Source: Narcine bancroftii | Lineage: Eukaryota | Assembly (NCBI RefSeq): GCF_036971445.1 | Contig: NC_091481.1 | Location: 1,612,001-1,676,000, forward strand | DNA length: 64,000 nt | Direction: 5' to 3' | Shown here: piece after piece, positions 5,353 to 30,475 of the stretch | How positions within the stretch are numbered: the first letter of the stretch is position 1 | Layout: every line of letters starts with the position of its first letter | The notes under the pieces: generated by a model | Seen by the model: the letters and a program-made list of their open reading frames with translations, nothing else | What the model was told of the DNA's origin: nothing | The model's database searches: none | Translations under genes and position numbers: made by a program

Positions 5353-6544
5353 GTAAGTCTGTCGTTCTTGATCAGTTCTCCTTGCTCCAAAGTATCACAA
5401 GATGTCAAGTTCCTGTCATGATTTGCCTTCATATTTCTTCTTCTGATTGCAGCCTTACAATGGTTTATTGTGGTTTATCTGGAACCTTCTCCCATTGGGA
5501 GGAGAGAGAAGAGTGTGTGTCTGGGGTGCAATGCATCCTTGGATGCACTCTCTTCTCCCTCCTCCCACTGGGAGAAATGAGTTATAGATGGAGTCCATGG
5601 AGGAGAGGGAAGTGTGCTATATCCACCACCTTCTGTAGCTTCTAATCCTGAGCAGAACAGCTCCCATCCATTGCTGTGGTACACCCAGCAAGGGACCAGT
5701 AGAAGTTGTCGAGGTGTCGGTGCTCATTCTCAATGGTGCACCTTTAGAAGTTGTCGAGGGACAATGGGGGGAGGGGGGAGATGTGCCAATCGACTGTCAC
5801 TTCGATGTGCTTTGTCCCAGGTAAGGTCATTGGAGATGTTTATTTCAAAGACCTTGAAGCGCTCTGTACTTTGAACTCCAGTGCCTTTATTGTGGATAGG
5901 GGGTGGAGTCTTCTCCTCTCCTGGTCAGTGATCATCTCCTATTGACTTTGAGAGGTTGTATCAACACTATGGACGCTTAATCTCTCTTTCCTGACTCATT
6001 GTTATTTGATACCTGGTTCACTGCCGTGGTGTTGTCGGTGAATTTGAGGATGGAGTTGGAACAGTATTTATCTGTACAGTGGTGGATGTAGAGAGACTAC
6101 AGTTGAGAATGATTACAACATCTTTGAAGAGCGCTGGTGTTGAGTGTGACCATGGAGAAGATGTTGTTACACCATCTTCACTGAATGTGGGCTGTTAGGC
6201 TCTGTGTCAAGGATCCATTTACAGTGGGATCACTGGGACCTGGTCATTTAATGCAGCCATTCTCAACTCTTTTGTTTCCGACTATGGCCCCCTGGGACTC
6301 TGCTCAAACTTTATGGGCCCCCTTCCCTGTGAAGCAGTCACATTTAGTTGGTTTATTTTGTACTTCTACTGACTACGTAAAAAAACATATTAAAAAAAAA
6401 ATGTGTTACATGAGGTGAAAAGAAAACGAGGCTTTTACATAAATGTGTTAGGCCCCCAGGGGTGTTGCAGGGTCCCCATTAAGATTGGGTGGTTTAATGG
6501 TTCCATAAATGGTGTTAACCCTATTGGTACAATATGTCCTGGAA

Positions 6545-7880: not shown

Positions 7881-8379
7881 CAACACGAATGTTGTTCAAA
7901 GCAATTGCAATGTGAAATTTGTAGTGCACAGAATCGAATTGTTGTCGAGAAGCAAGGTCAAGTTCCACGAGAATAATGTCTGATGGAATAAAGTTACATT
8001 TGAAGAGAAGGAGAAGATTCTTCTGATGCAGATTTAAGAAAAGTTGTTGTTGAGTTGACGAATGCTTCAGATTGAAAGATGCTTGGTTTTTTTCTCTGTA
8101 ATTGTATGTTGAATGTGATATTGTTCACATGATGAGTGTAATTTTATCCCTTGTGACATTCCTCCCATGGTTAACGTTGATAAAATCTAATACGGTGGAT
8201 GTTCTATTCCAATGGAAGGTTAAACTGTTTCAGATGACTTTATGGTGTGTTTCAGGCTGAGTGGCACAGCTCAGGGTCACTCAGGGTAACTGCTTTAGAC
8301 TGTCTGGTGTCAGATTATCTGGGAGACCCTCTGGCCTTTGCACTCTGTATGCACTGACCATGAATACATGTAGTGTGTC

Positions 8380-9560
8380 ACTGGAGTTGCACTGAAACTG
8401 ACCCTTCGATCCAACACATCCAGGCTGACCTTTTGCCCATCACTCATCCCATTTGCCCACATTAGGAGCATTTCCTAATGCGGGACTCCTATAAAAACAC
8501 TGGTTGTCCCTCTGCCTCCACAGTCGTTGTCTGACCTATTGACATCCTCCAGCACTTTGTCCAGCAGCTGCTGTCTCCTGTATCCTTCTCTGCCTTGCCT
8601 GTTTAACGAATGTCTGAAGGTGGCTTAAGTGTGGTGACTGTCCGATTCCTCCCCAGCACAGTTCCTGATATCAACCACTGCATTAAAAACTTGGCCTTCA
8701 GATTCCTCTAAAATTCCTTCCTCTTTTTAAATCTTGTTTTTGATACCCTTAGCATGGGAAACCTATTTTCATTACCTTCCCTCTCTGGGCCTTTTATAAT
8801 TTTATGTCCCTCCATCACCTCATGACTTTAACCTTCTTTCCAGAAAAAAACAAGCCAAACCTATCCATTCTCTCCTCATAGCTAAAGTCCTCCAGTCCTG
8901 GCAACATCCGAGTTAATCTTTTCTGCACGCTCGCCAATACAACCACATCCTTCCTGCAGTGTGGCTCATGGTGCTCCAAGTGTGGTCTAACCATAGTTTG
9001 GTAAAGTTGCCACTTTACGTCCCAGCTAATGGCTTCTCTGCCCAACCGATGAGGTCAGGCCTGCTGTCTTCCTCCTTCACCACTTCAGGGAACCCAAGTT
9101 CCCTCTGCTCATCAGTAACCCTTAATGTGCTGCCATTTACTGTACATGCCCTGGGCAATCATTTGGAGAGCTTTATCAGTTCTCAAGTTGGGAAATTACC
9201 TCTATCCATTATAGATTTCTTAAAACATTACATTCAAAATGGTTCATAAGCTTAATCGAGTCATGGAGTTGCACATCATGGAAAATGTCCCCTCGGCAAC
9301 CAAAATGTCCACTAACACTGGTCCCACCTGCCTGCATTTGTGCTATATCCCTCCAAACCCATCTTATCCATGTATCCATCCAATTTTCTTCTTGAATGTG
9401 GCAATAGTACCTGCCTCAACCCTAATATAGCCCATTCCATATACCCACCCCCTTCTGTGTTCTCACCCTCAGGTTCCTGTTAAATCTCCTCCCCCTCCCC
9501 TCATCTTAAACCCATGTCCTCTGGTTACCGATTCTCCCAAATTGAGTAAAAGACTCTGCA
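8380..9560 (-). mobile_element. CR1-clade LINE fragments
   Basis: LYQTMVRPHLEH...SVQKRLTRMLPGLEDFSYEER plus 3' end motifs. Confidence 0.7.
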
Positions 9561-10047
9561 TTCGCCTGATGCTGGAGAAACCTGGCAGGTCAGAGTATTT
9601 AATGTAGCAAAGATAAAAATACATAACCATGTTTTAGACGAGCCCTTCATCAACCACCTGCTCAGTTTCTCCAGCATTGTTTTTAGAGGAGGTGATCTTT
9701 TTTCCCCCTTTACTGTTTCTAATCTCAATCCAAATGGGCTCAACATTTTGCTTCTTAGATCTTGTATCATCTCTCACTATTGCCCATATCTCATCCAAGA
9801 TAGCAAAGATAAAGATACAAGACCAACATTTTACTCAAGTCCGAAACATTGGTTCTGTATCTTTAGGATATGAAGGACACTGATTGGCCTGCTGAGTTTC
9901 TCCAACATTGTGTTTTTACTTCAAAGACTTTCGTGTTTGACCTTTAATTTAATATTCAATTCTCTGAAGGATGAAGTTCAGGACTTTTCAGCCAGTTGCT
10001 GGGTGAAAGCATTTATTAATCCAGCCAATTGTGCTGTGTCTCCACAG

Positions 10048-10437
10048 TCAGAAACTCTGCTCCACGGCACCAGTGAAAACGTCAGTGTACAAGTGGCACA
10101 TCCCAGTGTGATCATCCACGCAGTCGCCACTGACGACATCACTTCCTCTATAACGCAGGCAGAGCTGACGGTGGGTGGCGAAATGGAACACGCAGCTCTG
10201 ACTGGACACCAGTCTAGTGCACTCGGAACTACTGCCTACACTGATCTCCATCAGGCTAAGTTAACCGGAGACCAAAGCACCAGAGAGACAGCCCTCACTG
10301 AGACAGAGATTGGCCCAGGGAGCCTGAACTGTGACACTGGTGACGATATGATGGGCTCAGATGTAAACATTAACGAGACAGATCTCCGACAGGGAGTTGA
10401 AGTGCGGTCTGATCTAAGTGGTGCTTATGCCACTGAG
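10048..10437 (+). CDS. DMTF1: DMTF1 coding exon
   Basis: ccacag| ... GAG|gtaaga; contains VIIHAVATDDITSSITQAELTV and SDLSGAYATE (human VIIQTVATEDITSSISQAELTV / SDLASAYVTE). Confidence 0.95.
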
Positions 10438-11303
10438 GTAAGAGCTCTCTGGAAATCAAGTTCTGATTTGGTGAGATGATGATGAGAATATTGTCATATA
10501 CACAAGTACAGATGCACTGACATTCCTACTTGCTCCTGCCTGACTGATATATTAGATGCATCTACTAGAACAGTATAAATTGATTACAATATGCCCAAAC
10601 AGGAAAAGAGATACAGTAAAACCCCTGTTGTCCAGAATTCAAGCAACTGGTTAAAAAAAAATCCCAGAAAGCAAATAGGTAAAAAAACAGGTTAAAATTG
10701 GCACGCTTTCCTGTTAGTTTGCCAATCACACAGCACATAATCAACAGGCAGGCCAAACCATCATTGAATTATACAGATGATGTTTCAGAGGGAAATGTGT
10801 AGTTAATGCAAGGGCAGCATTGTGTTACTAATGAGAGAGGGGCCCATTGAAGAGACTGAAAACAGCAAGGAAGAAGCTGCAGGAACCTGGAAGGACATGT
10901 TTTCAAATTCCTGTGTTCTGTACCAGTCAGGCCCAACACTGACATCTATCTGATAGTCTTGATAATTGTCCAGGTGTGGCCGCTTCCAAATCCAATCCAT
11001 CATGCTACCTTGCATTTAGCACTAGTGAGCTCTATCACAGGTCAGAAATGGGCACCTTCACTGATTGCTCAATGTTCAATGCCATTCACAACTCCTCCGC
11101 TCAAGCCTGCACACAGCAAGACCGGAATAATGTTCTGCAATAACATTCCCATTGCCAAGGTATCAGGCAGTGATCATCTCCCAGTGTCTGGTTTACCATC
11201 ATCTTCTCAAGGACAACTGGGGACACGATAGCTCTGTCACTGATCTCCATGTCCTAACAAGCAAGTTATAAAAGTAACATCTCCCAACTCTTCCTTTTGC
11301 CAG

Positions 11304-11436
11304 GCTCTGGTATCTTCCAATATAGAAGCAGGCATTGATGAAGAAACGACATTGATTGTTCCCCCGGATCACCGATTTATGCAGTCAGCAGATGACATCG
11401 ACAATGATTCTGTTTTGCCATTATCGACACTGACCG
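11304..11436 (+). CDS. DMTF1: DMTF1 penultimate coding exon
   Basis: ttgccag| ... G|gtaagg; ALVSSNIEAGIDEETTLIVPPDHRFMQSADDIDNDSVLPLSTLT. Confidence 0.93.
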
Positions 11437-13273
11437 GTAAGGAATCCCAGCGACGTGGTTAACGTGCAAATTGAGTGAGACATGAAAGGCTGCAAATGCT
11501 ATGATTGTAGTAAAAACCCAGAAATGCTGGAAGAACTGGCAGGTCTCACAGTGTCCAGAAGAGGTAGAGATGTGTGTTTCGAGCCTGACCCCTTCAAGGT
11601 ACAAGTAAAAAGCAGACAGGTGCCTGAATTACCTCTCTTGTTCCATCCCTACTCAATTAACACCTTTTGTCCCTTGTGCATTCTTCCCTTCCCTGCCTTT
11701 TGAGCACCTTGGCTCGGTCTGCCACAACAGCGTGGATCTCTCAGTGGCCAACCTGCTTTTACCTTTAAGGGCTCAGGCTGAAACAGTATATCTGTCTGTC
11801 TGCTATGGACATTGAGACAGGCAGAGTTCCTCCAGAAATTGTGTTTTTACTACAAACTTCCATGTTTCACATACTTTTTAAATCTCATACCTTAAGGGCT
11901 CAGACTCAAAATGTTGGTTCTATGTATTTACCTCCTATGGATGATGCAAGACCTGCTGAGTTCCTCCATCATTTTTGTGTTTTAACATGCTAATTTGCTT
12001 CTGCAGCACCTTGCACTGGTGATCTCCAAAATCTTGCTTTGCATTTCTCATTTTACCATTCATGTAATGCATCCACAATGTGTCCCAGGGTATGGGCTGG
12101 TGATGTGTAGGCACTTTGCCACCATACCCAGTTCTGTGCTGGGAAGCAGACAAATTTCTATTTGGCAAACCCAGTTGCACCATTAGCTGCATGGGTACCT
12201 GAAAGCACAAAGCCAGCCAACTGGAGGGTGACAGTGTGTTGTCCTGTCGAGAACCTGCATCGGAACTGGGAGAGGGAAGGTAGTCAATCTACAGGGGTGA
12301 GAAAGGAGGGGTGGTTCATTCGTATAACTCAGCACAAGAAACAAGAGGTTACTGATCAGATCTGCACTCAAAGAAACAAAGGGTATTGAAGTCTTCCTGC
12401 AGGGGAATGAATGAGAGTAGGGATTGAAGGAAATATACAAGATAGTCAGCATCTGGAAAAATAGCACTTCAGGAAACTGTCTGGGAACTCTCTCCACAGA
12501 TGCTGCCTGACCAACTGATGTTTCCAATGGCGTGCTTTTATTTTGAAATATTAACGCCAAGAAATTGGTCTTTGAGGGCTAGAGTTTGATTAAGAATAAT
12601 TACATTTTGAGTACTAAAATGCCACCTTGTGTGACAAAGTACAAATTTTTCAGAATATTTTAAAATAACTGCTTAATAATTATGACATGCCAATTGGGGA
12701 GTACTGAATCATTAACCTCTAAACTTTCACAAACTTTGCTCATGTAAAATCCTGGAGTTGCCAATGGATCTGCAAACTGTCCACAATTTGCTGCTCGGCC
12801 TGCTGACCTCTTCCTGCTGTTTTTTTTTTGCTCCAGATTCCAGCATCTGCAACTCTCGTGTCTGAAAAATCTCTTCCAAAAAAATTAAATTACCAGCTTT
12901 CTTAACATTCACCTTTCATACATTGGTTTTGTGCGTATTTTCCAAGCTCCATGGATGTAATGTTGGTAAACTATTCTGCCCCTTTGTCTCTCAACTGGTT
13001 TCATATCTTAGCTAATTGGCACCTGAGGCAATTTCTCAGCCTTGAGCCAGGCATGGTGAACTCCAAGGGGTGCACGTCAGAGCCAGAAAGGGAAACTGCA
13101 CTGTCTTGTGGAAGGCAAGACAACTGTGGACAATGCTGGTCAGTTGGCCCCCTTTAGTCAAATGCAATAATGTCATAAAACTTGATTCTCACCTCGTTCT
13201 AGTGTTTTTAACTTCCTTTAGAAATTTTTTTAAAACCTTGAAGGATTGAGCCACTGTTATGTCTTCTTTGCAG

Positions 13274-13350
13274 ATCCTATTTTACAAACCCAAGGAGTCT
13301 GCTCAGACACCATTGGCTCGGCCTTGGAAAGCCCAGATCATGAGGACTAA
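13274..13350 (+). CDS. DMTF1: DMTF1 last coding exon (stop TAA 13348-13350)
   Basis: ctttgcag|AT; DPILQTQGVCSDTIGSALESPDHED* vs human DPILQHHQEESNIIGSSLGSPVSED. Confidence 0.9.
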
Positions 13351-14310
13351 GGAAAGCCCCTCCCGCAGAACTGCAATGGTCAATGAGCAATGCTGCTTAT
13401 TCACTGTTGGATGAACATTGACCAAGGAATCCTAATACTTTCATGGTGCTGCCTTCAAAAGACAAAATGAGATGGTTAATAGAATTATCAATCAATTTCA
13501 AAATTTTGGGTGCATATATTTACTAAATATGACCTTGTGCCAAGAAAACTGTACATTTAATAAATACATCACCCTTCCCCCGACTGCTCTCAAAGGTTGA
13601 CAGAAGATTTAATCAGTTGAGAAGCTGAAATGGAAGAGTTTTTAAAAAAATGTTAACAGGCGAAGTTTCAAATGTTAAAATCGTCACAGCTTACATTTTG
13701 TCCTATTCTTCAAACCCAAAAAAGCCTTGAAGCACATTGGGCTGTGTAATGGGACAAAGGCTGTGACGCACGCACATTCAGCCACTGGATGCACGGTGGT
13801 TCGAATGTTCCATCCATCTTGCTGTGACCCTGGAGGATGCAAGGAATGAGATGCTGGAATATCTCATCTGGGGGATGGAGAACAAGAGCATCCTAGTTGC
13901 ACCAACCTCGAAAACAAGACGCAGTCAGTTCCCGAGATATGTCAGAAGCTGCACCTGAAGAACTCTGCACAATAGCAGAGTTCCAGTTGTGAAACCTCCA
14001 CAAGATACTCAGCATTCAACTTATTTTTATGCACAAATAAACAAAGCATAGTATGTCCAATGTATATAAATTATTTTATTACTATTTATTCTTTAAAACA
14101 AAGTAAATGCTTTTTTCCAGTTGTGTTGTCTAGTACAAGTTCAGTCTTGGTTTGGCTAGATCATTTTATTGTACAAACTCAGTAGAGCAAGTAGTTGCAT
14201 AGTGCAGTCATTCATTCATTAATTAAGACAAAATAAAAATTTGTCTTGCAGTATCTTAATTTCTACTTTGTGAAATACTTTGTTGAAACAGAATAAAGTT
14301 CCAGTGCTTT
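13351..14310 (+). other. DMTF1: DMTF1 3' UTR with candidate AATAAA signals
   Basis: AT-rich, no recognisable repeats; AATAAA at ~13559, ~14036, ~14232, ~14292; true end unknown. Confidence 0.55.
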
Positions 14311-14624
14311 ATGTAATTTTAAAAAAACTGATTTCAGGAAGAAAACACCCTTACAAAAAGAGAAATGTGTGTATTTCAAAACATTGGCAAGTCTGGAATG
14401 TTCATTTAGTGCAAAGTTTTAAAATTTACTTTAGAAAATATTTCTAGCATTCCGAAGGAGACATCCAGTTCAACGTGACCATCTGAAGCTCACTCCACCT
14501 GCACAAAACGTCGCCTTGCAGTGTGCAGACCAAAATTCACAATCTTTCTTCTAAACACGTCCTTGGTGATGCCTCCATTTTGAAGCAGGGCACAGACACA
14601 AATTCTCTCCTGAGTGCGGTGAAA

Positions 14625-14747
14625 TCATTTCCCTACATCGTGAAAGTACAGGTTGGCACAGATGCACAGCAGGCTGATGGAGACCAAATTGTAGTAGATG
14701 AGATTGCGGAATTTAGGCTCCAAATCCCCTTGGCGATACCACCAAAT
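14625..14747 (-). CDS. TMEM243: TMEM243 last coding exon
   Basis: ttttcag| IWWYRQGDLEPKFRNLIYYNLVSISLLCICANLYFHDVGK* (human IYWYRQGDLEPKFRKLIYY...ANLYFHDVGR). Confidence 0.96.
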   Translation of the reverse strand: MWWYRQGDLEPKFRNLIYYNLVSISLLCICANLYFHDVGK

Positions 14748-14869
14748 CTGAAAAATACAAATTTAGTGCAGTGACAAGAAAATTACTCCAAGTCAAAAGG
14801 TTTCTGAGGGCAGGATTTGCAAGCTTTCATTTTTATCGTCAAGAGTACATACAACCCTGAGCTTCTTTT

Positions 14870-15340
14870 CCTGTCGTAAAGTTCTGGTCTCTTTACTTGA
14901 AGAGGGATGTACTGGCCTCAGAGGTGATGTAGTGGAGGTTCACCAAGTTGATTCTAGAGATGAGGGGGTTAGCTTATGGGATCGAGTTGCCTGGGACTGT
15001 TCTTGCTGGAATTTAGAAGAAAAATTATGAAAGGCATAGATAAGGTAAGTAAATGGTTTCCTTGGGGAGGGGGGTGAAGAGAGCGAGACCAGAACTACAG
15101 GGCAGAACTTCAAGATTCAGGATGGAGATGAGGAGGGTAGTGAATCCTTGGAATTCGCTGCCCATTGAAGCAATGGAGGCGACCTCAGTAAATATATTTA
15201 AGACAAGGTTGGATAGATTTTTACATCATAGGGGAATTAAGGGAAAAAGCAGGTAGGTGGGGATGAGCCGATCATCAGACCAGCCGTGATCTCATTGAAT
15301 GACGGAACAGGCTTGACGGCCAACTCCTATTTCTTACATT
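14870..15340 (+). mobile_element. CR1-clade LINE 3' fragment
   Basis: RVVNPWNSLP...NIFKTRLDRFL and typical 3' UTR. Confidence 0.7.
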
Positions 15341-16300
15341 ATAAAGGAACTCTTGCAGAAGCTGACTGACTGTCAAGAGAGACCATTGATCTCCCCACTC
15401 TCAAACTTTTCTTCAGACTACATTAAATCTGCCTTTTCCCACCAATTTATTTTGCTGCTGTCGTATCGACCTTTCCCCACAGTTGAATTTTCATTAAGTG
15501 TAATGGGCTTCAAAATATTTGCTTTAATCATTTTGATGCCACGGGCATTTTATCTATATTTTCTTTGTGTTGGCAGCACCTCTCTCTATCTGCCCTGGTT
15601 CACTAATTTCACATCCCCTTGTTTGTTTGGAGCTGTGGACCACTGTAGCAGAGCTAAAAGGACCAAGGCTCCAAAGGTAGTCAGGTGCTGGGAGAACATC
15701 TCAGAACAGCTGCTACTGCCCATTCACCCCACAAGTTAGCTTAGCATTTCAAAATGTAATTTGAATTATTACCCATCCCTTTCCAAAATCTAAGTAAATA
15801 CAAAATGATTGACTACATTTTAAAATCCATTCAGCTTTATCACAACTGCACTTGTAAGATCTAGTTTTGAAATTTGCTATTTTATTGCTTCACTCCAATC
15901 ATTAAATTTTTGGTACAGGTTTCCTGGACCTTTACCTTAATGTATGCCTTACAAAACAGTGCTGACCACAGTTTGTGCCATTGATTCACAACAGTGCTGT
16001 CCTCATTGGCACCAAGTATATGGCAGCTCTGTCCCATTTCACAGCTCAGGTCGATTTAGCAACACTCGTACCCTTGTACAAATTTCCCTGCCTTTTCAGA
16101 TGGCCGTGTGACCAAGAATAGTTAACCACCACAAAGTCAAACAGAAGGCATCATCTCCAAATCATTTGCTCCATTTCTTTAGTGCACAATCATGTACAGA
16201 ACACACCCTTCTGCCTCCACAGGAAAGTGATCTCTAAATGTAATGTCAACGGTATTGAATTACCATTACTCAAAGGAGAGTTGAAAGTCATGATACTTAC

Positions 16301-16405
16301 AAGAACACCAATCGAGACGCAGCTCAGTAAAATGCAGAAAACAAAGAAAATATTCAGTGGCTTTGGAGGTAATTGAGGGAAAACAATCGCACTAATCACC
16401 GTTAC
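16301..16405 (-). CDS. TMEM243: TMEM243 coding exon 3
   Basis: tgtag| VTVISAIVFPQLPPKPLNIFFVFCILLSCVSIGVL |gtaagt. Confidence 0.96.
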
Positions 16406-18527
16406 CTACAAGATGAAATTAGTAAAGCAAACAATAAGATGGATTATAAGCAAGGATTGATTTGACACAAAGCAACAACATTCCAAATAAAAATATTTGA
16501 TTGTCAATGTTATCTCTTTGCCCTCCCTCCTTCCAAATCTGCCCCGGCCTGTTCAACCATACACCAACGTCAAACACCGAGTGCAGTGTCTGTAGCCCAG
16601 GGTGACAATTTTCCATTCACTTCTTTCATTTTTCCTGGTTGAGTCACCTTCACACAGATCTCAGCCAGCACCATCTCTATTTGGAAGGACTATTTGGTAT
16701 GACATACACAGTGAGTGGTTGGGCACTGAGGAGTGCAGTAGAACAGGGATCTAGGAATACAGACTCATAGTTCCCTGAAAGAAATATCACAGGTAGATAG
16801 GGTTGTAAAGAGAGCTTTTGGCATATTGGTCTTTATTACATCAAAGTATTGAGTGTGGAACAAGCTGCCATCTGAGGTAGTGAATGCAGGCTCAATTTTA
16901 ACATTGAAGAAGAATTTGGGCAGGTACATGGATGGGAGGGATAAGGACTGGGTGCAGGTCAGTAGGACAGAACAATAGTTCAGCACATACTAGAAGGGCC
17001 AAAGGGGCCTGTTTCTGTGCTGCAATGTTCAACAGCTGACTTTCAGTCTCCCTCATTTCCACTTGATCCCTAACACTTTGCTTTACTCTCTGCAACTTAA
17101 AAAGGGGTTTGATTTCTGCTGTCAGCTCTTTAGTTTGAACGTGTCTGGGCCCATAGACTCTTCCAACATGCTCAACTTCCAAAACACACACCTTGTCAAT
17201 TAAAGTTTACATAAAAAGCAAAGCTCTCTCCATCTTGAAAATGCATTGCTTACAAGACAGTTTTTTTTTGGGGGGTGGTGAATGGGGTTGGATAAAGAAG
17301 AGAATGAGATTAGAGAAGACAATTGAAAAAATTGATTGAAGTACAAGGAGAGGTTTTAAAATTAGACTCAGAGGTACCAAAAAGTTCAGCATTGAGCAAA
17401 CCAACTGTATGGAGCGGAAATGGAGTTTCAATAGTATCTCCAAGGTCAAGGTAAGAGCTGGACATCTGTGACTCTTAACATTCAGGGAGAACAGTGTGAA
17501 GAGAATAATGTACTCATCAAAAATTCAAACTCATCACATGGTGCAGAAAAGTCAAAAGGATTTGTTCCAAAAAGAAGCAACAGGGCAAGGTTGGATTAAA
17601 GATTAAAATTGCAGTTGCTCGAAATCTGAAATAAAAACAGAAGGCTGGAAGCACTCATCTGTGGAGAGAGAAGAAAAACAGTTAACACTGTGCCTCTGCA
17701 GATGAAGGGAGGAGTGGCCAGTCGACTGCACGTCTTCTTTCCTTACGGGACCGCTGGCAGAGAAGCCACTGTGGTCACCACTCGCTGGAGAAACAAAAGT
17801 TGCAGAAGGAATCTCGAGTGAACTGAAAAAAGCTGGAGGGACTCAGCAGGTCAGGCCCATCTGTGTAGAGAGATGTAAATCTTGGCAAAGGAAGCCACAT
17901 GCAGATGTTAAGGAGCAGATGAGAATCAACAGGCGTCACGATCTTTCCTTCAGTCTGGTACAGAGGTACCAATGCACAGATCAGAAACAAGCTACAGAGA
18001 ATTGTGAACTCAGCCAGCACCATCATGAGCATCTCTCCAACAAGGTCACCTTTAAGAGGTGGTGCCTCTTAACCCAGGAAGCAATCTATTTAACTTTTTT
18101 CTCTACTGCCTCCACGCATGTACACCCTTTTAAAAACACCCACATGTACTTCAGGTGTGAGCTTTTACTGAGCCCCTTGTAAAACTAAAGCAAAACTCCT
18201 TTAAAAGACCTACCCATGTTTAATTTCATCACTCTTCTAGCTCCAGAGACGAAAGATCCCAGAGAAGAAAAAGTGTTGAATTGTTTACTGTCATCTCTAC
18301 CAAGCTGTAGTGTTATGTGCGCTATCCAGGCAAGTCAATCATAAAAGAGGTCGTGGAAGCAGAAAAGCCAAACTGCAGGATAGTGTTAAAGATAGAGGTA
18401 CACATTTAAGACAAATCAAGAACAGGTTCCATTAGTGAGAGGGATCACACCACAAGCTCAGATAGAGATGCACCAGTCTAAATGGATTGGTCCTTGCAGA
18501 ATAACAGTGCTGTCCTTCTGCCCATAA

Positions 18528-19168
18528 AAGTAAAACGCGAGAGTCTGCAGACACTGTGGTTGGAGTAAAAACACGAAGCTGGAGAAACTCAGCAGCTCAG
18601 TGTACTTTATAGAGCAAAGATACACAACCAACGTTTCGAGCTTGAGCCCTTCATCAAGGTATGAGCAAAATGTCGGCAGGCACCTGAACAAAATGGTTGG
18701 GGGGAGGGGCACAAGCACGGACTCAAAACCAGGGCGTAATAGATGGATAAGGGAGGGAGGGAGGGCACACCAGCAAACAGGGGGGTGGGATGGCTCTGTG
18801 AAAAGAGAGGGAAGGGGGTGGAGAGCTGGAGGAAGAGAGGGATGGAGAAGAAGAGAGTGGGCTAGCAGAAACCGGAGAAGTCGATGTTAATGCCATCTAT
18901 AATCTGCTGTGACTGCCCAGGAGACAGAACGCTGACCCTGTTGAAGTCAACAACCAGTCATCAATGGCCACTGACACCCCAGAAGATGGAGTCCATACAC
19001 TCAGCTCCTGGGTCCATTGCAGACTCTCGCAGGTTTCCTGCCATAACAGATCATTTTTACAGTAACAGACTTGAGCAGAGCTGAGGATTCAGTGTGACAT
19101 GTTATACAAGGCAACTTCCCCACCCTGATGCTTGATCCAGCAAACTACCCTATATTCCAAAAGCTCCC
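18528..19168 (-). mobile_element. Composite Penelope-derived element, copy A
   Basis: Penelope 3' end (DGINIDFSGFC*), pyrimidine tract, hammerhead-like motif and tail, preceded by ~270 bp shared with 40263-40515. Confidence 0.7.
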
Positions 19169-19657
19169 TACACATCTGAGTTTAAGCATTTATTGTCCGA
19201 ATTCATCTACTTATCACTCTACCGGACAGAGTGGCTGCAATCATAAAGCTTTCACAGTGACCACTGCCACTACTTGTAGTACTGTCCAGTCTCTCTTGAT
19301 CTTCAGGCTATCACTGATCTTCCCTTTGCTCTCCCCTCCCCTTGCCCTTCTCTGGAAATCAAACGTTACTTTCTGTTATCCCAGTTCTGAAGAAAGGTCA
19401 TCTCCTGAAATTATCATTTTGTTTGCTCTCCCTGTGGATGTTCAAGCCTGAAACTTTGATCCTGTGTCTTTATCTTGACCTGCTGAGGTTCTCTCCCAAT
19501 AAATATGGTTTCTCTTCTTAACCAATCCATTTTGTCAATGGAGAGGATTTAGCATTTGCCTTCATTTTGCCAATTATTGCAAACAGAACATTCGTAGATG
19601 GTGCTAAAGAATCACTACTGATAGAGAGCTGCTAAGATTCAAACTCTTGGTACTTAC

Positions 19658-19708
19658 TATGAGAAACACGGCGGTGAAGACACCAAAAACAAAGTTGATA
19701 ATTCGATC
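19658..19708 (-). CDS. TMEM243: TMEM243 coding exon 2
   Basis: ctttcag| DRIINFVFGVFTAVFLI |gtaagt; 51 bp, phase 0/0. Confidence 0.93.
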
Positions 19709-20059
19709 CTGAAAGAAAATGAGAACATGAAAAATCTCAAGCTACATTCAAAGCATTTAAATTCCACTCAATATTGCTTCAATCTGTAAGCATCTGGGGG
19801 ATTTTTTTTTTGTAAATAATATTTTTCATCATTTAGAAACATACAGGAGAATAGAGAGTCATGAACCATGTGTTCCCCAACCAGAAGCCCTGGATGAATC
19901 AGAGAATTCTCAACCTGCTGAAGGCGTTTAAGGCTGGGGATTGGAAGTCCAGCTCTGAAGCAAAGTGGCAATTCCGGAGGAAGCTAGAGACAGAGACATG
20001 CCAGCTGTGGCAGTGAGTGCAGGCCTACAAAGCGAGGGCACACACTATAGATGGCTGCA

Positions 20060-21250
20060 ATGGACATAAGAAATAAGAGCAGGAGTCGGCCATCTGGCCC
20101 ATCGAGCCTCCTCCTCCATTCATTGAGATCACGGCTGATCTGATCACTGACTCAACTCCACTTACCTGCCTTTTCCCCATATCCATTAATTCCATTTTTA
20201 TGTAAAAATCTAACAGAACCTTAAATATGTTTAATGAAGTCTCCTCATCTGCTTCCCTGGATAGAGAATTCCACAGATTCACGACTTTCTGGGAAAAAAC
20301 AGTTTTCCCTCGTCTCCGTCTTAAATCTACTCCCCTGAATCTTGAGGCGGTGTCCCCTAGATCTGGTCTCACCTACGAGTGAAAACAATTTTTCTGCCTC
20401 TATCTTTTCTATCCCTCTCATAATTTTATATGTTTCTACAAGATCTCCTCTCAGTCTTCTGAATTCGTGAATCTAATCCCAGGTCAACCCCCCTCATCTC
20501 TGGGATTAACCTGGTGAACCTCCTCTGGACTGCCTCCAAGACCAGTCTATCCTTCCTCAAGTATGGAGACCAGAACTACACACAGTTCTCCAGGTGCGGC
20601 CTCACCAGGACCTTGTACAGTTGCCACATGACCTCCCTGCTCTTGAATTCAATTCCTCTTGTGATGAGGCCAACATTCCATTTGCCTTCTTAATAACCTG
20701 TTGAACCTGCAACCCAACTTTTTTGTGATTCATGCACAAGCCCTCCCAAGTCCTTCTGCACTACAACAGGCTGCAGTTTTTCACTATTTAAATAATATGC
20801 TCTCCTATTTTTCGTACCAAAATGGTTGACCTCGCATTTACTAACATTGGACTCCATCTGCCAGACCTTTACCCACTCACCTACTTTAACTATATCCTCC
20901 TGCAGCCTCTCCATATCCTCTGTCCAATTTGCTTTTCCACTCAGTTTAGTTTCATCTGCAAACTTGGCTACACGACACTCTGTTCCTCTTCCACATCATC
21001 AGCGTAAATGGTGAATACCTGCAGGCCCAACACCAACCCCTGCGACCCCCCACTTACCACTGTCTGTTAATCAGAAAAATACCCATTTATCCCATCTCTC
21101 TGCCTTCTGTCAGTTAACCAATCCTCAATCCCTGCCAGTATATTTCCCCCGACTCCATTCACCTGGATCTTATTGATAAATCTCTTGTGCGGCACCTTAT
21201 CAAACGCCTTCTGGAAATCCAAATATACAACATCAACCTGTTCCCCTCGA
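20060..21250 (-). mobile_element. CR1-clade LINE RT/3' fragment
   Basis: VDVVYLDFQKAFDKVPHKR, LQEDI...WQMESNVSKCEVNHFG, FSQKVVNLWNSL. Confidence 0.85.
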
Positions 21251-21259
21251 AGTTGCTTT

Positions 21260-22050
21260 ACTTTCTGATGAACCAAACACTTTCTATGCCTGCTTTGAGA
21301 GAAGAACCAAACAGTGTCTACTAAAACCCCTGAAAAGGCTGAGGACCCTGTGCTGCCTGAGGGTGATGTCAGAATATCATTCAGAAAGGTGACCTCGCAT
21401 GGTGTCAGGCTCTGACGGTGTACCTGGCAGGGGACTGAAAATCTGTGTCAACCAACTAGCCTGAGTGTTCACAGACATTTTCAACCTCTCGTTGCTGCAG
21501 TTAGAGGTTCCCACCTGCTTCATATGGACATTAATCATCCCGGTACCAAGAAGATCAGCGTGAGCTGCCGCAACAACTACAGTCCAGTAGCACTAACTTC
21601 TACTGTGATGAAATGCATTGAGAGGCTGGTCATGGCCAGAATTAACACGTACCTAAGCACAGATCTGGACCCACTGCAATTCACCTATCGTCACAATCGA
21701 TCCACAGCAGATGCAATATCGCTGGCTCTCCACTCAGCTCTGGACCATCTCAAAAACAACTGCATATGGCTAATCTTCATTGACGACAGCCCACCCTTCA
21801 ATACCATTATTCCCTCAGCTCTGGTCGAGAAGCTACAAACTCTCAGCCTCTGTAACCCCACTCTGCAACTGGACCCTTGACTTTCTCATTGGAAGACCTC
21901 AATCAGTATGAATTGGAATCAATATCTCCTCCTCTCTGATTATCAACACAGGTTCACCCCAAGGATACGTGCTTAACCCATTGCTCTACTCATTATACAA
22001 CCATGTCTGTGGGGCCAGGCACAATTCCAATTCCATTTACAAGTTTGCCA
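21260..22050 (+). mobile_element. Rex1/Babar-like LINE RT fragment
   Basis: [20 protein letters not shown]...[18 protein letters not shown]...FNTIIP, LNPLLYSLY. Confidence 0.85.
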
Positions 22051-22099
22051 GTCTTGCAGCATCCATGAACATGAAATATTATCAAGAAATATTATACAG

Positions 22100-22530
22100 T
22101 TTTGGGGTTGAACCAGTGATCACCCATTTCAATTCTCCATCCCATTCCCTTGCTGACACGTCTGTCCATGGTTTTGTGTACTGCCAGACTGAAAGCACCC
22201 ACAAATTGGAGGAACAACACCTCATCTACCTTCTGGGCACCCTCAATCTGGATGGCATAAACATGTCCAGTTTCTATTAGCTTCCCTCCACCCTTCCCAT
22301 CTCTCCCTATCTCTCCTTTCCTCGAACTCTCTTTCTCTTACCCCAGCTCTATATTCACAGAGCCAATTCCCACCCGCACAATCAATTCTCACCTTTCTGC
22401 TCTCCTGGCCTCCTCTCCATGTCCAATTAACACCTTGGCTCAGGCCTGAAAGGTCAGTAATATATCTTTACCCCCTATGGATGCTGCAAGATCTGCTGAG
22501 TTTCTCCAGCATTTCTGTGTGTTTCATTAC
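22100..22530 (+). mobile_element. Penelope-like element 3' fragment
   Basis: HFNSPSHSLADTSVHG...KLEEQHLIYLLGTLNLDGIN. Similar fragments at ~25980-26445, ~28420-28820, ~40855-41097, ~55640-56130. Confidence 0.8.
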
Positions 22531-23199
22531 CCGGGGATTCACTTTATAATAGAACTGGCCTTAAGGAACAGAAAATCTCTTACTGCACCCCAAGTGCATC
22601 CACATTGGATATTTTGGACACTATTTTTAAAAAAGCGACTAATTTTAGGTTTTTTTTAATGTAGAGAGTGGTGGGTGCATGGAATGGGTTGCCAGCAACG
22701 GTAGTGGAGGTGGATACGATAGGGTCTTTGGATAGGTACATGGAGCTTAGAAAAATAGAGGGCTATGGGTAAGCCCTGTAATTTCTAAGGTAGGGACATG
22801 TTCAGCACAACTTTGTGGGCCGAAGGGCCTAAATAATGCTGCAGGTTCTCTGTGTAACTTTGCAAACAAGCATTTACAAACCCGTTACAATTGTCTGACA
22901 TTCCTTCCCGACAACAGCCAAAGCAGACAAACCCATAATTTCAAACTTAAATAAACATTAAATAATAACCATCACACACTACCAAGTTCAGGAGAGAAGG
23001 GAACTTCAAACATTTATACAAAATAATCCATTAAAAGTCAACTACAAAGTTGACTAAAACATAAAGAACACAACTACCAGAATTGAACAAGGATACTCTA
23101 AAGTCCTTAGAGGGATGATCCAACACTGATCCAAGTGGAACCACAGGCAGTGAAGGCTCGAGACAGGATCCAAACAATGGACAGAGAGAAACTTCACCA

Positions 23200-23765
23200 A
23201 ACACAAAAGTCTGCCTACGGTGTGGTTAGAGTAAAAACACGATGCTGGAGAAACTCAGGAGGTCAAACTCTGTACTTTACAGAGCAAAGATGAAGATGCA
23301 GAACCAAAGTTTTGGGCTTGAGCCCCTTCATCAAGGGATGAGTGAAATATAGGCAGGTGCCCACCTGTAAATTGGAGGAATAATGCCTAATAAATTTTCC
23401 ATTTGGGACGGCATTAACAACGACTTCTCCGGTTTCTGCTAGCCCACTCTCTGTTCTCTCTCTTCCTTCCCCATCCCTTGGACTCCTTTCCTCCAGCTCT
23501 CCACTCACTTCCCTCTCCATTCACAGAGCCATCCCCTTCCCTCTGCTTGCTACTGTGCCCCCCTCCCTTCTCCACCTATTACCTCCTGCCTGTAGGACTG
23601 TGCTCCTCCCTCTGCCCCGCCCCCTCCCCCACCATTTTGTTTGTGCGCCTGCCGACATTTTGACCCAACCTTGGTGAACAGCTCAAGCCCGAAACGTTGG
23701 TCCTGCATCTTCATCTTTGCTGTATAAAGGACACAGTTTGACCTCCAGCATGGTGTTTTTACTTG
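23200..23765. mobile_element. Inverted pair of Penelope-like 3' ends
   Basis: Minus-strand tail 23200-23365 faces away from a plus-strand copy 23365-23765; each carries the hammerhead-like motif. Confidence 0.7.
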
Positions 23766-24366
23766 AGGTTCAGCTTGGAAGAGGCATTACATTTTGTGCA
23801 AAGACAAAGGATCAAGAAAAGGAAATATCAAATGGGATGGTGGAATCACACATCTTTCGCACAGGAAGTGATTCACTATATCACTGTAAACTCCAAATCA
23901 GCACCAACTCGTTCTTCGACTGACATTTGAACTTAATAAGAAATGGGGACAGTATTATTGCAGAATTTCATGTACTTTTGAACATGTTCATTCAAAGTTT
24001 TTCAGATTTTTGATCTTACTGCTTCAATCTTCCCTCCCTTTCTTGAAATACTTTGTTAGGACTCAGAATTGAAAATAATTTATCTAATTTAAAATTATTA
24101 ATATTTGAAAGTTTGAAATGAAATGTCAATTCCAAATATTACAAGATTACAAAGATTTGTTTTGTTCTCTGTTGAGAATAACTGTAAATTTTTGTGTTAG
24201 TTTCATAATCTAAAAATAAATTGTTTTGAATACAGTTCATCTTCTTTATCAAGCCCAAAAAACACTTAATAAGAATCAAAACTGTCCGTGCACCTGGTTC
24301 TGAAAATAAAAATTAATGACATAATGTGCCCTTCTTCATGGATTGTTATCAAAATTAAATACACTT

Positions 24367-24812
24367 TACCATATATACTCATGTAATAGTCCAGTTTTGT
24401 GGACCAATCTTTAGGATGAAATTTAGCTGGTCGACTACTACACACATTCTATTTTTGACCAGCGTCGTTCAAGGCGTCAGGAGCTCGGATGGCCGGGACA
24501 AGGCAGTAAGTCCACGTTCGGGGCATCGGGGGCTCCAGCGGGCGGCCAGGGCCTGGGTGAGAGATGCCGGTCGGGGCATCAGGAACTCCAGTAAGTGGGC
24601 AGGGACTAGGCGAGAGATGGTGGCCAGGGCAACAGGAGATCAGATGGGTGGGTGGCTGAGGCGGGAACTTGGATGGACAGGCAGCCGAGGCCTGGGCAAG
24701 AGACAGCAGTTGGGGTGGACGGGCAGTCAGGAACGCGATGGGGGGGTGCTCAGGGCCAAAAATAGGGAGTCGACTTTTACTCGATATCGACTATTATACA
24801 CATATATACAGC
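24367..24812. mobile_element. Non-autonomous DNA transposon (Tc1/mariner-pogo-like MITE)
   Basis: Imperfect ~25 bp TIRs: taccatatatactcatgtaatagtc ... gactattatacacatatatacagca, with internal gtcgac subrepeats. Confidence 0.6.
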
Positions 24813-25016
24813 AATCATCCGTAATGAGCTCAGGGATACATCAGATAACTGTCGACTTTCACCTGAAGAACATTATTCATTTAAAACAAATCAACCATTT
24901 CAATTAGGAACTTAATAAAAAGAAATGTAAGGTTTCCTGGTGCTTGAGTGAGTCAAATAGACTAATTTGGCCTGTGCTGGAATTGAGAGACTGGAGATCA
25001 TGACCAACCCTCTTAC

Positions 25017-25094
25017 CCTTGCTGATGTCTCTCCAAATAAGGGCCTGTTGTCTTGTCCACTTGTCCCATATGACCGCGTCCCATATTCATCCAT
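25017..25094 (-). CDS. TMEM243: TMEM243 first coding exon (ATG at 25094)
   Basis: MDEYGTRSYGTSGQDNRPLFGETSAR|gtaaga (human MEDFATRTYGTSGLDNRPLFGETSAK); the four exons give 118 aa. Confidence 0.95.
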
Positions 25095-27151
25095 TGCAAC
25101 TTTACACAATATACTTTCAAGCAGACCAAATCTCAGCAGAGCTCCTTAACCATTTATCCCAAGCACATTGTGGGAAAAAAGTTATTCTCTTGGAGACATC
25201 TGATGTAAAGCACTTCAAATGCTTTTATTTTCTCTTGGTTTTCATGGTGAATTTTCCTGAAATGTCAAAGATGAGCCATTTAGAATAAATACACCCATTG
25301 CTGCCATTCGACTTCACACATCACAAGAAACAGAAATGGACAGTCTCCCAAGAGCAGGCAGAATCAAAGTCAAATTATATCTTCTAATAAACCATTACAT
25401 TTTTCAAATAAATATATTGTTATAGGGAAACATCACGAAAGAGAACAGCAGGCAAATGAAACTTCAATTATCCAATTTTCTTCACAGCAAACAATTCTTT
25501 TTTGACTCTTCTGGTCTCTTTTTAATTGAATTCAGCTTACTTGGTAGTTGTTAATTATAGATTTTTTTTGTAATTTTCTTTAGTTACTTCTGTAGATTAT
25601 TTTTTATCGAAGTACTTGTGGGCTACAGCATGAATTTCAGTGCATATACACTGTGAAAATTAGCATTTTGACAAAGAACATGTTGGATTATGTTTCTGAA
25701 GATAAATTATAAATGCACTGACTGTAAGGCGTTTGCACGTTCTCCCCACGACCACGTGGGCTTTCTCCCATGTTCCAGTGACGTAAAGGGTAAGACAATT
25801 GGACGCATGGGTGTATTTTTGCAGCGTGGCCTTGTGGGCCGGAAGACGTATTACTGATTATCTAAAACAGATAAAATCTGGTCAGTTCTGCACGAGATTT
25901 CCCCAGTGACTGTGGCAGCTTCCCTTTAATACCTTTCTCAGTTCTGAAGCAGGATTTTGACTTGAATTACAGGAACCTCTCAATGGACAACCACTTAAAT
26001 TCTGCCCCCCACACCCGCACTGACATGTCTGTCCGTGGCCTCATGCACTGTCAAACCAAGAGCATCTGTAATTTGGAGGAGAAACACCTATATTCCGTCT
26101 GGGTCCTCTCCAACCAGATGGCGTTAACATCAAACTCTCCGGTTTCTGCTAGACGACTCCCCGTTCTCCCTCCCTTCCCCATCTTCCTTCCTCCAGCTCT
26201 CCACCCGCTCCCATTCTGAGCCCCCACCGCCGTTTGCTGCTGTGCCCTCACTCCCTTCTCCACCTATTACCTCCTGCTTGGGGGACTGTGCTCCTCCCCC
26301 TCCCCCTTTTATTTGAACACCTACCAACATTTCGTCCATACCTTGATGAGGGGCTCAAGACCCAAGCGTTGGTTCTGTATCTTTATCTTTGCTAAAGGAC
26401 ACTGTTTGACCTGCTGAATTTCTCCAGTGTCGTGGTTTTACTTTTTAGCCTCATGGAGCAGCTGGATTTATTATTCAGAGTTTATTCCTGGAGAAGCTCC
26501 TCCCCGAACTGTTCACTGAAATCAAGACCTAGATACTGCAGTGCTATGTCATGGAATTGGAAAATAAGAACCAAATGCTGGAAACCCTCAGCAGGTTGAG
26601 AAGCTGGACTCATGAAACAAACTTTCTCACTGTCTCTCAGTATACGTGACAATGAACTTGATCTTGCAGCCAGGGCATGTCTGTGGGAACAAAGTCATCT
26701 CTGGTTGTCCTCTCTCTGAAATACATACTGCTCCTACAGATCAGATTTGACCTGGTACTTGCTGTTTTTTTTATTGTTCTGTAGATTGAGCGTCTACAAC
26801 TTTTGGATTACCTCAGCGGACGTGCAGTGCATGTCAGCAAATCAAGGCAGGGTGCAACGGTTACAGTTCCTGGCACAAACTGCAGGTCACATGCAAAAGC
26901 AGAACATGCACTGAAGTTTCCACCATCATCTTCCGAGAAATTAAATTAAAATGTTTGAATAGCAGCGACAAGACAGTTTCTCACATTCTTGTTTCATCTC
27001 GACCTACACAGTCACAGTCAAGAGCCTTGACTTCAGAAGATCCAATATACCAACAAAACTGCTGAAAGTACTAGCCCTCAGACATTCTCTTACTATTTAA
27101 CCACTTGACTAACCATTGCCAAATCGGTTTGCAGAGTTACATGTAACTGCA

Positions 27152-27748: not shown

Positions 27749-30475
27749 AATCTGCAGTAGTGTGGGAAGAATCCAGGGGTCTCTGAGAAAATAAGACTGA
27801 CATGTTCAAATCCGGCACTGTTTGTGAGGAGTTTGTATGTTCTCCCCGTGTCTGTGTGTGTTTCCTCCCACCCTTCAAAACATACAGGAGTTGGGATAAT
27901 TAGGCTGGAAGGGTTCATGGCTGGAATTATTCTCAAGCACTATATGGGCATCATGTTCCGTGCTGACATTGTGGGCCATAGGGCTTGCCCCATGCTGAAT
28001 TGGCCTAACATTAGCTGAGGTAACAAGAAAACTTTTGTAAGAACAGTGTTCTTGATAAAGCAAATGGTCACAGAATGCACATCTACCTGGATTCCACTGA
28101 AAAATTCAGTTTACAAAAATGTTTTTCACACTTGTCAATTGTGCTCATTGTTGACATCTGTTCTCTTGAGATTTCCAGTGCTCTTAGGTAAAAAAGCCAC
28201 AGGGGGATTTTTTTAAAAAACCACAAGAAGAGCCTAACAAAGCAGAAGTCGATCTGCCAGGACTTTACAAATGGGGTTTCTTTGGAATGAAGTTCCACCC
28301 AGCAATGTGGACCCTTCTTTTGTCTCCCACTGAAGGTGATCAACCCACTGAGTTCTTCCAGCAGACTGTGGTGAGGTTCAGATTCCAAAGGAACCAACCT
28401 GGAGCTAACTCTGCCTCGAGTCTCGTGCACTGCCAGACTGAGACCACCCACAAATTGGAGGAACAACACCTCATCTTCTGCCTGGGGCCCCCCAACTGGA
28501 CTTTTCCGGATTCCATTAAGAGCCCCCCCCCACCTCTTCCCCATCTTCTTCCCTCTAGTTCCCTCTCTCCTTTTCCCTCTGTCTCCTTTCACGGAGCCAA
28601 AATCAATTATCACCTTTCCTCTGATCATATCCTTTTGGCTGTTAGTCTGGACTCCTCCCCGTCCCCCCCTCACCCACCCCCCACCCAACCCTCTCTCTAG
28701 CCTTTAGTCAAGATGCCAGCTTGCTTTTTCACTCATACTTTGAAGAAGGACTTGGGCCCGAAACATCAGTGATCTATCTTGACCACCTATGGACGCTGAG
28801 AGACCAGCTGGGTTTTACTAACTTACTAACTCTGCCTCCCGGGCCACATGCTTCCAGGATGCCCTGCTTTTTAAGGTGATGTCCTGCAATGTTTCTAACT
28901 GTACTTGTCTCGACTCTGTGCACTACCTAACTTATTGTATCGCTGCTCCACACACAGTCACCCCACTTATTTACTATTGCACTACCTACTGCACAGCTTG
29001 ACTTGCCTGGATAGCAAGCAATTTTTAAAAAATGCTTTGCTTATCTCAGCACGTAGAACTATTCACCTGAAATATTTTTTGCTTAAGTTCTGAAGCTCCC
29101 CTCAGTCTGTATCCAATCCAACAATGTGCCAACTAACTCCATGAACCTGGCCAGATAACATAACATAGAACATTACAGTAAGGCCCTTCAGCCAATGTTG
29201 TATTGACCTATATAAACCTACTCCACGACATTCTAATTTTTCCTATATCACATCCAAAGCCCCTTACATCCATGGAAAATTAGAATGTCCCTATTGTACC
29301 AGCCTCCTCCACCACCGGTAATACATTCCAGGCACCCACCACTTTGTGTCAAAAAAAAACTTACCCCCGACATCTCCCCTAAACTTTCCTCCCCTCACCT
29401 TTTCCAGATGGTCTCTGGTGTTTTCTACTGTCGCCCCAGGATAAAACTGCTGGCTGTCCACCCTATCAATGGCCCACTCTCACACACCTCTATTAAATCT
29501 CCTCTCATCCTTCTTCGCTCTGCAAACCTTGCCTCATAAAACATGTTCTCCAATCCAGGCAACATCCTGGAAAATCTCCTGTGCACTCTCTAAAGTATCA
29601 TTTCCCCTGATTTTTTCATAGGTCTTTGTTAACACAATCTACTTACAATCGACAATCACTTCTCCCAACCTTTTGACATAGACGTGTTTCCCAAAGTCAC
29701 TCCAGAATAACTCCATTGTCCCAGAATCCCAGTTTCACTCAATTTAACTTACTGGAAAACTTCAAACTAACCTTTAAACTTCTGAGTTTTAGAAACAGAC
29801 AGCACTCCAAAAGGCCAACTGTACAACTATGACAATCCTAAACTTTGTGTCAGAAACGAGCTGCTGCAACCCCTCCACAGGTTGACACCAGATGTGGAGG
29901 CACAGGGACAATTGACGTTTCCGGTTGAGGTGTATCACCCCTTCGTCCTTCAATCCCTGGGAGCCCAGTGACACATCATTGATCATTTCTCACTCCCTGG
30001 TGCCCAACACCAGTCACAACACCCAGGGCGTGATCCAATTAGAGCGTAATTTTCACATCCTTTTACTCTCGTCATTTGGACACGGAAGCATAGAATTGCA
30101 CGGGGCTATTCAGCCAGAGCAAGTTTGCATTCCATTTCCATGGACCTCCAACACCTTAAGCCTTCCAAACCAAAAATCTTCCCTGTGAAGGCATCAGCCC
30201 CTCTTCTAGAGGAGATGTCTCAAGAAAGCAGCCTCTATCCTCAAGGACCCCCAGCCCCCAGGCCGTGCCCTCTTCACACTGCTACCATCAGGAAGGAGGT
30301 ATAGGAGCCTGAAGACGAACACCCAGCAGCACAAGGACGGCTTCTTCCCCTCCGCCATCAGATTCCTGAACAGACAGTGAACCCCAGACACTGCCTGACT
30401 TTCTCTCGTTCTGCACTAATTTATTTGAAATGTAATTTAGGGAAAGGGGTGTGGGATAGGTGAGAAGGCTTAAGG

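Follow-up and report, generated by a model that had tools for sequence, protein, structure and literature searches.

Why should a 64,000-nucleotide stretch of the Narcine bancroftii genome (the window, which here means that whole stretch) carry a scatter of short motifs that look like hammerhead ribozymes, some of them inside the introns of host genes, and could any of them still cut RNA? The motif is known in kind, real, and mostly dead. The copies are most likely passenger remnants of a weak hammerhead, dependent on dimerization and likely on a protein, that belonged to an extinct Penelope-like element (PLE) of the Neptune type. Within the window they are ordinary transposon debris; what is odd about them, and also useful, is a U3·G8 core that runs through the lineage.

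Motif copies in the window and the genes around them

The initial annotation had counted about a dozen copies, and the motif, in some cases decayed, is present at all 12 of the positions it gave. The count was nevertheless too low, since an HMM search of the window yields 22 fragments of the element's pseudo-LTR (pLTR), 13 of which include the hammerhead region. An ungapped scan with a genomic copy as the query finds 11 sites in the window with at most 10 mismatches and 7 with at most 6, compared to 0 in each of 30 local shuffles. A strict descriptor of the minimal hammerhead (min-HHR) passes 18627-18660 and 34841-34874 in the window and one more copy in 788 kb of other DNA (3 in 852 kb), with 0 in 5 shuffles. 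Four of the six copies that had been ranked as best (7743, 28737, 40710, and 55068) fail this descriptor through changes in stem I, stem II, or the CG of stem III. The copy at 55068, described as having a canonical core, does have C3, but its stem III palindrome is gone. Stem II, which had been drawn as 5 bp closing a 2-nt loop, is really 4 bp with a 4-nt loop (GGGC-UCAA-GCCC). What these motifs share with the Rfam hammerhead families is the core letters only, and both U3 and C3 copies are below detection at E<=10; the families (including RF00163) gave zero matches at this threshold, whether in the window or with a C3 copy. The Rfam hammerhead models do not cover the min-HHR form. The features of the window are as follows.

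18627..18660, minus strand: complete min-HHR, the sole one in the window, by sequence and descriptor (the full 34-mer of the lead copy)
18502..18899, minus strand: 5'-truncated Penelope-like copy around the lead motif (nhmmer E 1.1e-69), sense in TMEM243 intron 16402-19653
34841..34874, minus strand: min-HHR with core and stems I and II intact and the stem III CG changed to UG, ~320 nt beyond the MEIG1 polyA signals
7743..7776, plus strand: subfamily B copy (N7 = A) with an intact core and damaged stems I and III, sense in a DMTF1 intron
28737..28770, plus strand: copy with an ACU/AGU stem I, an intact core, a stem II mismatch, and a decayed stem III, intergenic
40710..40743, plus strand: intact-core copy with an altered stem I 3' arm, between MEIG1 and DCLRE1C
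55065..55098, plus strand: subfamily C (mixed) copy with C3, having lost the palindrome of stem III, sense in DCLRE1C
23195..23798: inverted pLTR pair (23303-23336 minus, 23668-23701 plus), both cores broken, the usual PLE insertion shape
47899..48135: inverted pLTR pair (47928-47961 minus, ~48001-48034 plus), both cores broken, directly after DCLRE1C exon 1
25985..26444, plus strand: PLE 3' end with a broken motif at 26340-26373
11470..12017: three decayed subfamily B fragments with their cores deleted (11574-11601 minus, 11754-11837 plus, 11883-11973 plus)
51564..51694, plus strand: decayed copy with a broken core, sense in DCLRE1C
35058..35141, minus strand: layer D copy (the oldest layer, with GUC/GAC in stem I), core broken, absent from the earlier list
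1723..14747, plus strand: DMTF1 3' exons, GT-AG joints in 3/3 runs, with the Myb exons just upstream of the window
14000..25863, minus strand: TMEM243 (PF10856; splice joints)
35310..38190, minus strand: MEIG1 coding exons (PF15163), a gene left unnamed in the initial annotation

In the lead copy, 18627-18660(-), an ACC/GGU stem I encloses the core UUGAUGA (U3 U4 G5 A6 U7 G8 A9), the extra A, stem II (GGGC-UCAA-GCUC, with one G·U), GAAA (G12 A13 A14 A15.1), a palindromic ACGU with its CG at 15.2-16.2, and U16.1 and U17; the cut is predicted after GUU (18630/18629). The fragment around it (18502..18899, minus strand) runs from the last codons of the GIY-YIG ORF through a pyrimidine-rich pLTR and the hammerhead to the conserved 3' tail, with the ORF end read from the sequence by matching to longer copies. 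The inverted pair at 23195..23798 is predicted to fold into a single long hairpin that sequesters the motif.

The placement of some copies in sense within introns, as first described, stands: 18628(-) and 23303(-) lie in TMEM243, 7743(+) in DMTF1 (within the spliced intron 5353-10047 of this plus strand gene), and 51598(+) and 55068(+) in DCLRE1C. Spliced contigs contain the TMEM243 joints in 4/4 runs (three joints, the first intron in 3/4) and five DMTF1 joints in 3/3 runs, all from one study. Contigs show neither ends nor strand, and they are therefore silent on cleavage. None of the sequencing runs listed is on record as RNA. We take the upstream gene to be DMTF1 from its motifs together with the splice joints, and the downstream gene is presumably DCLRE1C, with its motif-based exons at ~47750 and 61432. 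A search of the window with PF07522 for DCLRE1C gave no match, and a Pfam scan of 300 of the 489 candidate frames gave no DMTF1 or DCLRE1C domain.

Other features of these genes were seen along the way. The last exons of DMTF1 (+) and TMEM243 (-) overlap at 13273-14747 of the window, and single contigs span both. A 54-nt TMEM243 exon at 19654-19707(-) is detected by splice joints only, and an intronless TMEM243-family copy with many stops, likely a processed pseudogene, lies elsewhere in the genome (G000:C8:239189254-239189553). The intron after the DMTF1 exon that ends at 5352 contains a near-perfect 80-nt hairpin (5492-5571), with weak matches to miRNA models that are below the gathering score. 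Just beyond the MEIG1 polyA signals, two same-strand pLTR copies (35058-35141 and 34784-34893) lie 261 nt apart, one of them with a broken core.

The carrier element

The identification of the motifs as Penelope-derived minimal type I hammerheads is borne out by their location in the pLTR, sense to the remnants of an ORF with RT and GIY-YIG. The motif is found ~200 nt past the stop codon of this decayed ORF and ~70 nt ahead of a conserved 3' tail. Upstream of it, longer genomic copies have RT motifs (GTCMG, YIDD), a CX4CXXC linker, and CCHH residues within a GIY-YIG domain, and in the long copies L277, L278, and L281 the linker precedes a CxxC..YIGETG..H..H domain. The Neptune clade is described as having a CX2-5CxxC linker between RT and EN and CCHH in the EN (PMC8557442). 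Judged by its sequence, the carrier is an EN+ Penelope-like element with these Neptune marks (linker and CCHH). A 339-aa remnant matches 7 database proteins of 613-806 aa; all 7 contain PF26215, 5 also RVT_1, and 3 also GIY-YIG, so that 3 of the 7 have the full RVT_1 and GIY-YIG layout, and the match closest in identity, at 50%, comes from the shark Chiloscyllium. Pfam matches to the decayed ORFs alone are weak (best E 0.007).

The copies are 5'-truncated, and of 26 pairs of neighbors no more than 1 kb apart, 14 have a back-to-back inverted arrangement, which is the known PLE shape. Samples totaling 1.245 Mb gave densities of 146-250 fragments per Mb. Extrapolated to the genome, this would come to roughly 0.5-0.8 million fragments, 0.3-0.5 million of them including the motif region. 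A first-look genome search returned 84,406 endonuclease and 20,668 RT candidates. Among the best 150 + 150 scored protein hits and 12 long loci, there was no intact ORF (the longest open frame is 449 aa) and no active-element layout, in which an intact ORF lies between tandem pLTRs; a rare intact element may be present among the hits beyond the best 150 + 150. The long element bodies are 66-83% alike, members of the youngest family differ by 5-23% from their consensus, and the Penelope family looks extinct. In all 12 of the long copies (L270-L281), common homology breaks off within the RT, at a point ~1.3-1.9 kb upstream of the motif, and the 5' half of the ORF is found in none of them. In the anole element the ORF starts within the motif. 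Such a start was considered here and is unlikely because family B lacks the ATG (N7 = A), which is formed only when N7 = U.

The closest published relatives are the hammerheads of PLE pLTRs described by Cervera and De la Pena in 2014, which have a nucleotide between 9 and 10.1, a G10.1-C11.1 pair, and a palindromic 15.2-16.2; their monomers showed no cleavage and their dimers low cleavage, and a U3-A8 variant was described (PMC4209133). The motifs studied here are likewise type I, in the pLTR and sense to the ORF, with a short stem I, a U-rich 5' flank, the extra nucleotide at 9/10.1, G10.1-C11.1, a palindromic 15.2-16.2, and no stable stem III. They also occur mostly as single motifs in truncated copies, with opposite-strand pairs 100-700 bp apart. 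The extra A after A9 had been put forward as a trait of this lineage, but an extra nucleotide at this site defines all metazoan min-HHRs (PMC4209133). Unlike the published set, U3·G8 replaces C3-G8 in about 91% of the copies here, while the paper, where it takes up core variants, discusses U3-A8; stem II is 4 bp here, and the alignment rows seen in the paper are without cartilaginous fish.

Two further groups bear comparison. The PLE-associated dimeric hammerhead variants of Lunse, Weinberg and Breaker (2017), as reviewed in PMC6765202, have a tiny palindromic stem III and cleave as dimers, and the very short palindromic stem III is shared by the motifs here. Non-LTR retrozymes, reported from Chondrichthyes, are pLTR-derived, hammerhead-bearing tandem arrays (bioRxiv 10.64898/2026.07.22.740005). 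They are described as having at least 2 tandem units and a complete HHR, whereas the copies in the window are scattered PLE ends, which ORF remnants often accompany.

The U3·G8 core and its age layers

The claim that this lineage favors U3 holds across the genome. Exact-pattern counts are 915 U3 vs. 42 C3, and when stem II is left free there are 2,520 U3 vs. 254 C3 intact-core copies (2,520/2,774, or about 91%); reverse-pattern controls gave 0 in both cases. A set of 137 unselected copies has U at position 3 in 78% of cases and C in 18%. Because G8 is retained, the pair is U3·G8 in replacement of C3-G8, and the prevailing core here lacks the Watson-Crick C3-G8 (or U3-A8) that is a feature of the min-HHR. 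A rescue of U3 by A8 was considered and rejected, as A8 is a product of CpG decay: it occurs in 9 of 17 copies when N7 = C and in 8 of 117 otherwise. The extra nucleotide at 9/10.1 is A in 91% of 138 copies, G10.1 is kept in 91%, and C11.1 in 58%, with CpG decay.

Four layers of copies can be distinguished by their 3' flanks. Layer A is the youngest and has N7 = U, layer B has N7 = A, layer C is mixed with a C3 minority, and layer D, the oldest, has a GUC/GAC stem I and a stem II closed by U-A or U·G. The switch in stem I between layers, from GUC/GAC to ACC/GGU, is compensatory. The stem III palindrome is CG in consensuses A, B, and D and decays to TG or CA. In all four layers U3 is the commonest state. 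Since this includes layer D, U3 is older than the younger waves. Among the 100 matches listed of the 178 in layer D, positions 3-4 (tallied by eye) are UU in 57, CU in 14, and UC in 10; in layer D hits with A at position 5, UC is found in 15/38 and UU in 9/38. This reveals that the oldest layer, with GUC/GAC (L240-L269), contains a U3-C4 sub-lineage decaying at CpG. The idea of a large C3 family in its own right was also considered and set aside, as the C3 share of family A matches the T>C background (3/41 vs. 5.8%); it is modestly above that background in family B (7/38, p 0.026) and a real minority in family C.

The U3·G8 core already has a printed precedent. In supplementary Fig. S3 of the 2014 study, a PLE motif of Saccoglossus kowalevskii(1) is given with U3 and G8, without comment in that figure (PMC4209133). 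Because the alignment of that study includes this one U3·G8 row, the core seen here departs from its >80% consensus (CUGANGAH...GAAAN-palindrome-NUH in the supplement) and not from the published set. The Saccoglossus motif resembles those of the window in its U3 with G8, extra A, CG palindrome, U17, and association with a PLE, but it is a single listed example with a 6-bp stem II, while here there are thousands of copies from several amplification waves. A natural U3-A8 was reported by Perreault in 2011, and a halophile hammerhead variant with U3/G8 is described as functional (PMC7151607). A search of the literature for a published account of U3·G8 gave none beyond the Saccoglossus row and the halophile variant, though the Lunse 2017 set may already contain such variants.

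A lineage that drops C3-G8 yet keeps every other catalytic base could be considered a natural test of what PLE hammerheads do. If U3·G8 cleaves, mutagenesis has understated the tolerance of the core, and censuses that look for CUGANGA count too few hammerheads. A core that does not cleave would mean that the fold serves retrotransposition in some way other than catalysis.

Constraint, cleavage, and decay

The sequence of events that best accounts for these copies would begin with a Neptune-type retrotransposon, with a minimal type I hammerhead in its 3' pseudo-LTR, that left truncated, decaying copies genome-wide. In the once-active source elements, selection would have preserved the fold. The source ribozyme was probably weak, with two copies pairing via ACGU, likely aided by the element's own protein, and U3·G8 would have lowered its rate further, since U3 in place of C3 is predicted to weaken cutting. 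Once inserted, the copies appear to decay like neutral DNA without a partner and are likely inert, and any cutting of DMTF1, TMEM243, or DCLRE1C pre-mRNA would be below what selection sees.

Evidence for selection on the fold comes from comparison of the subfamilies. The core (U4 G5 A6 N7 G8 A9, G12 A13 A14, A15.1-U16.1, and H17) is found in all four subfamily consensuses and in 38/139 copies. Between the four consensuses, 0/11 core positions differ vs. 9/23 of the others (p 0.017, or 0.066 when the two columns that define group D are removed), with the copies gathered by an HMM that was built on the motif and favors intact motifs. The changes are located at N7 and position 17, in loop II, and in paired columns of the stems. 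Covariation in stems I and II had been proposed as a check on the fold, and 13 pairs were tested. Pair 2.3-1.3 is Watson-Crick in 74/120 copies vs. 62.3 expected (0/2000 shuffles; 0.0095 within subfamilies), and pairs 2.2-1.2 and 10.4-11.4 covary more weakly, a signal that is gone within subfamilies; 10.4-11.4 is C-G in 27/30 U3 picks and U-A or U·G in 22/30 layer D picks. None was seen at 2.1-1.1, 10.1-10.3 (stem II), or 3-8. The covariation seen is in stem I and, weakly, at 10.4-11.4, and it is mostly between subfamilies and not among inserted copies. In family A, non-CpG core bases have changed in 14/369 cases (3.8%) vs. 72/1073 (6.7%) in the 3' tail (p 0.04); no protection was found at the A bases of the family A core (4.4% vs. 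3.3%), nor in the older groups. The consensus and covariation results are suggestive of constraint in the source elements and of little or none after insertion.

The readings differ on whether the source ribozyme cleaved with this core. It is possible, though on balance doubtful, that a U3·G8 hammerhead which still cleaves, aided by dimerization and the element's own protein, carried an entire vertebrate Penelope lineage through several waves of amplification. If true, this would be a natural, genome-scale case of a dispensable C3-G8 Watson-Crick pair, with several hundred thousand motif remnants missed by CUGANGA descriptors and Rfam. Another explanation, also unlikely, is that U3 ended catalysis long ago and the source elements kept the fold as a handle for the RT/EN protein, as a part of the pLTR promoter, or as a transcript start. 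C3-G8 is a Watson-Crick pair in the active fold (PMC3884650), and in pairwise mutagenesis of a type III hammerhead, low activity is reported for all changes of the C3/G8 pair but the G-C swap (PMC9901934); by analogy, the low activity of the single changes would call any cleavage here into question. The hammerhead of the anole Poseidon element (PAc) is, like this one, in the pLTR of a vertebrate PLE, and according to Frangieh et al. (2024) it cleaves only with the PLE protein, yet catalytic mutants still insert in vitro and the RNA-seq ends reported are absent at the cut (PMC11167929). PAc differs in being an active element of the Poseidon clade with C3-G8 and an ORF start in the motif, while the carrier here is of the Neptune type and known from sequence. 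Naiad PLEs are reported to spread without canonical HHRs (PMC8557442). In the genome itself, few copies start at the cut site (5/230 5' edges are within 3 nt of it, and 75 are within 14 nt upstream of position 3, figures that are blurred by the clipping of local alignments), and homology in layer D ends 4 nt upstream of position 3. Positions 3-4 look relaxed because the oldest layer also contains the U3-C4 sub-lineage. Against a fold that had lost catalysis is the set of bases retained in all four consensuses: G8, G12, A9, A13, A14, A15.1, U16.1, H17, and the ACGU palindrome, with its two CpGs, are the set that catalysis needs. U3·G8 also arose in an unrelated PLE, and the halophile U3/G8 variant is called functional.

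A shift of register could in principle restore the textbook core, with the last C of ACC as C3 and one inserted U as a bulge. Hammerheads from a saltern do have core insertions beside C3 (PMC3088659), and some genomic copies (L036-L037) read C3 after losing one T, but under this reading a single pair would remain in stem I. Covariation at 2.3-1.3 and 2.2-1.2 (ACC/GGU, GUC/GAC, ACU/AGU) agrees with the U3 register and is lacking at the slid pair 2.2-1.3, which makes the shifted register very unlikely. It is, similarly, most improbable that the host has co-opted some intronic copies to cut or tune DMTF1, TMEM243, or DCLRE1C pre-mRNA. Cleaving intronic hammerheads do exist in RECK and C10orf118 (PMC3088659), the copy at 18627-18660 is complete and sense in TMEM243, and the family A core is the less changed part. 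However, that copy has no intact same-strand partner nearby, and min-HHR monomers did not cleave in the 2014 study; the fold of the copy drops out of the prediction once 274 nt of context are included, and TMEM243 is spliced across it in 4/4 runs. Strand bias is absent too: in eight spectrin-repeat gene spans, there are 62 sense vs. 52 antisense fragments (p 0.40), and 8 sense vs. 6 antisense intact cores, a number (n=14) at which a modest depletion could escape detection. An 86-bp array was masked before this count; unmasked, its span has 83 antisense and 7 sense. The earlier hint that intronic copies cleave host RNA is unsupported, because the sense share is that of chance and most copies are broken.

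The passenger reading agrees with the state of the inserted copies. In the 139 copies with the motif region (91/230 fragments are without it and were excluded from the core counts), the core is kept in 38, the core with stems I and II in 21, and every feature, including the CG palindrome, in 8. In family A, 62/164 CpG bases (38%) have changed, and this decay strikes C11.1-G12 (the general base) and the stem III palindrome. The centroid fold of the lead copy has stems I and II in a 58-mer and loses them in the 274-nt context, and in 0/6 copies was the fold energy better than that of shuffles (z -0.70 to 2.10). When two copies are cofolded, a non-hammerhead duplex is preferred, with the hammerhead dimer at -10.9 vs. 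-26.6 kcal/mol.

Two tandem arrangements outside the window deserve mention. In an intron of a spectrin-repeat gene (L112:1350-7939, in G000:C17), the 86-bp tandem array consists of ~77 units that derive from the pLTR 3' tail and do not include the hammerhead. At L174:7967-8132(-) (G000:C27:1823967-1824132), a direct 76-nt tandem contains two intact-core U3 motifs with AUGU in stem III. An inverted copy precedes this tandem and is predicted to pair off the first motif; the tandem is a candidate for a natural dimer.
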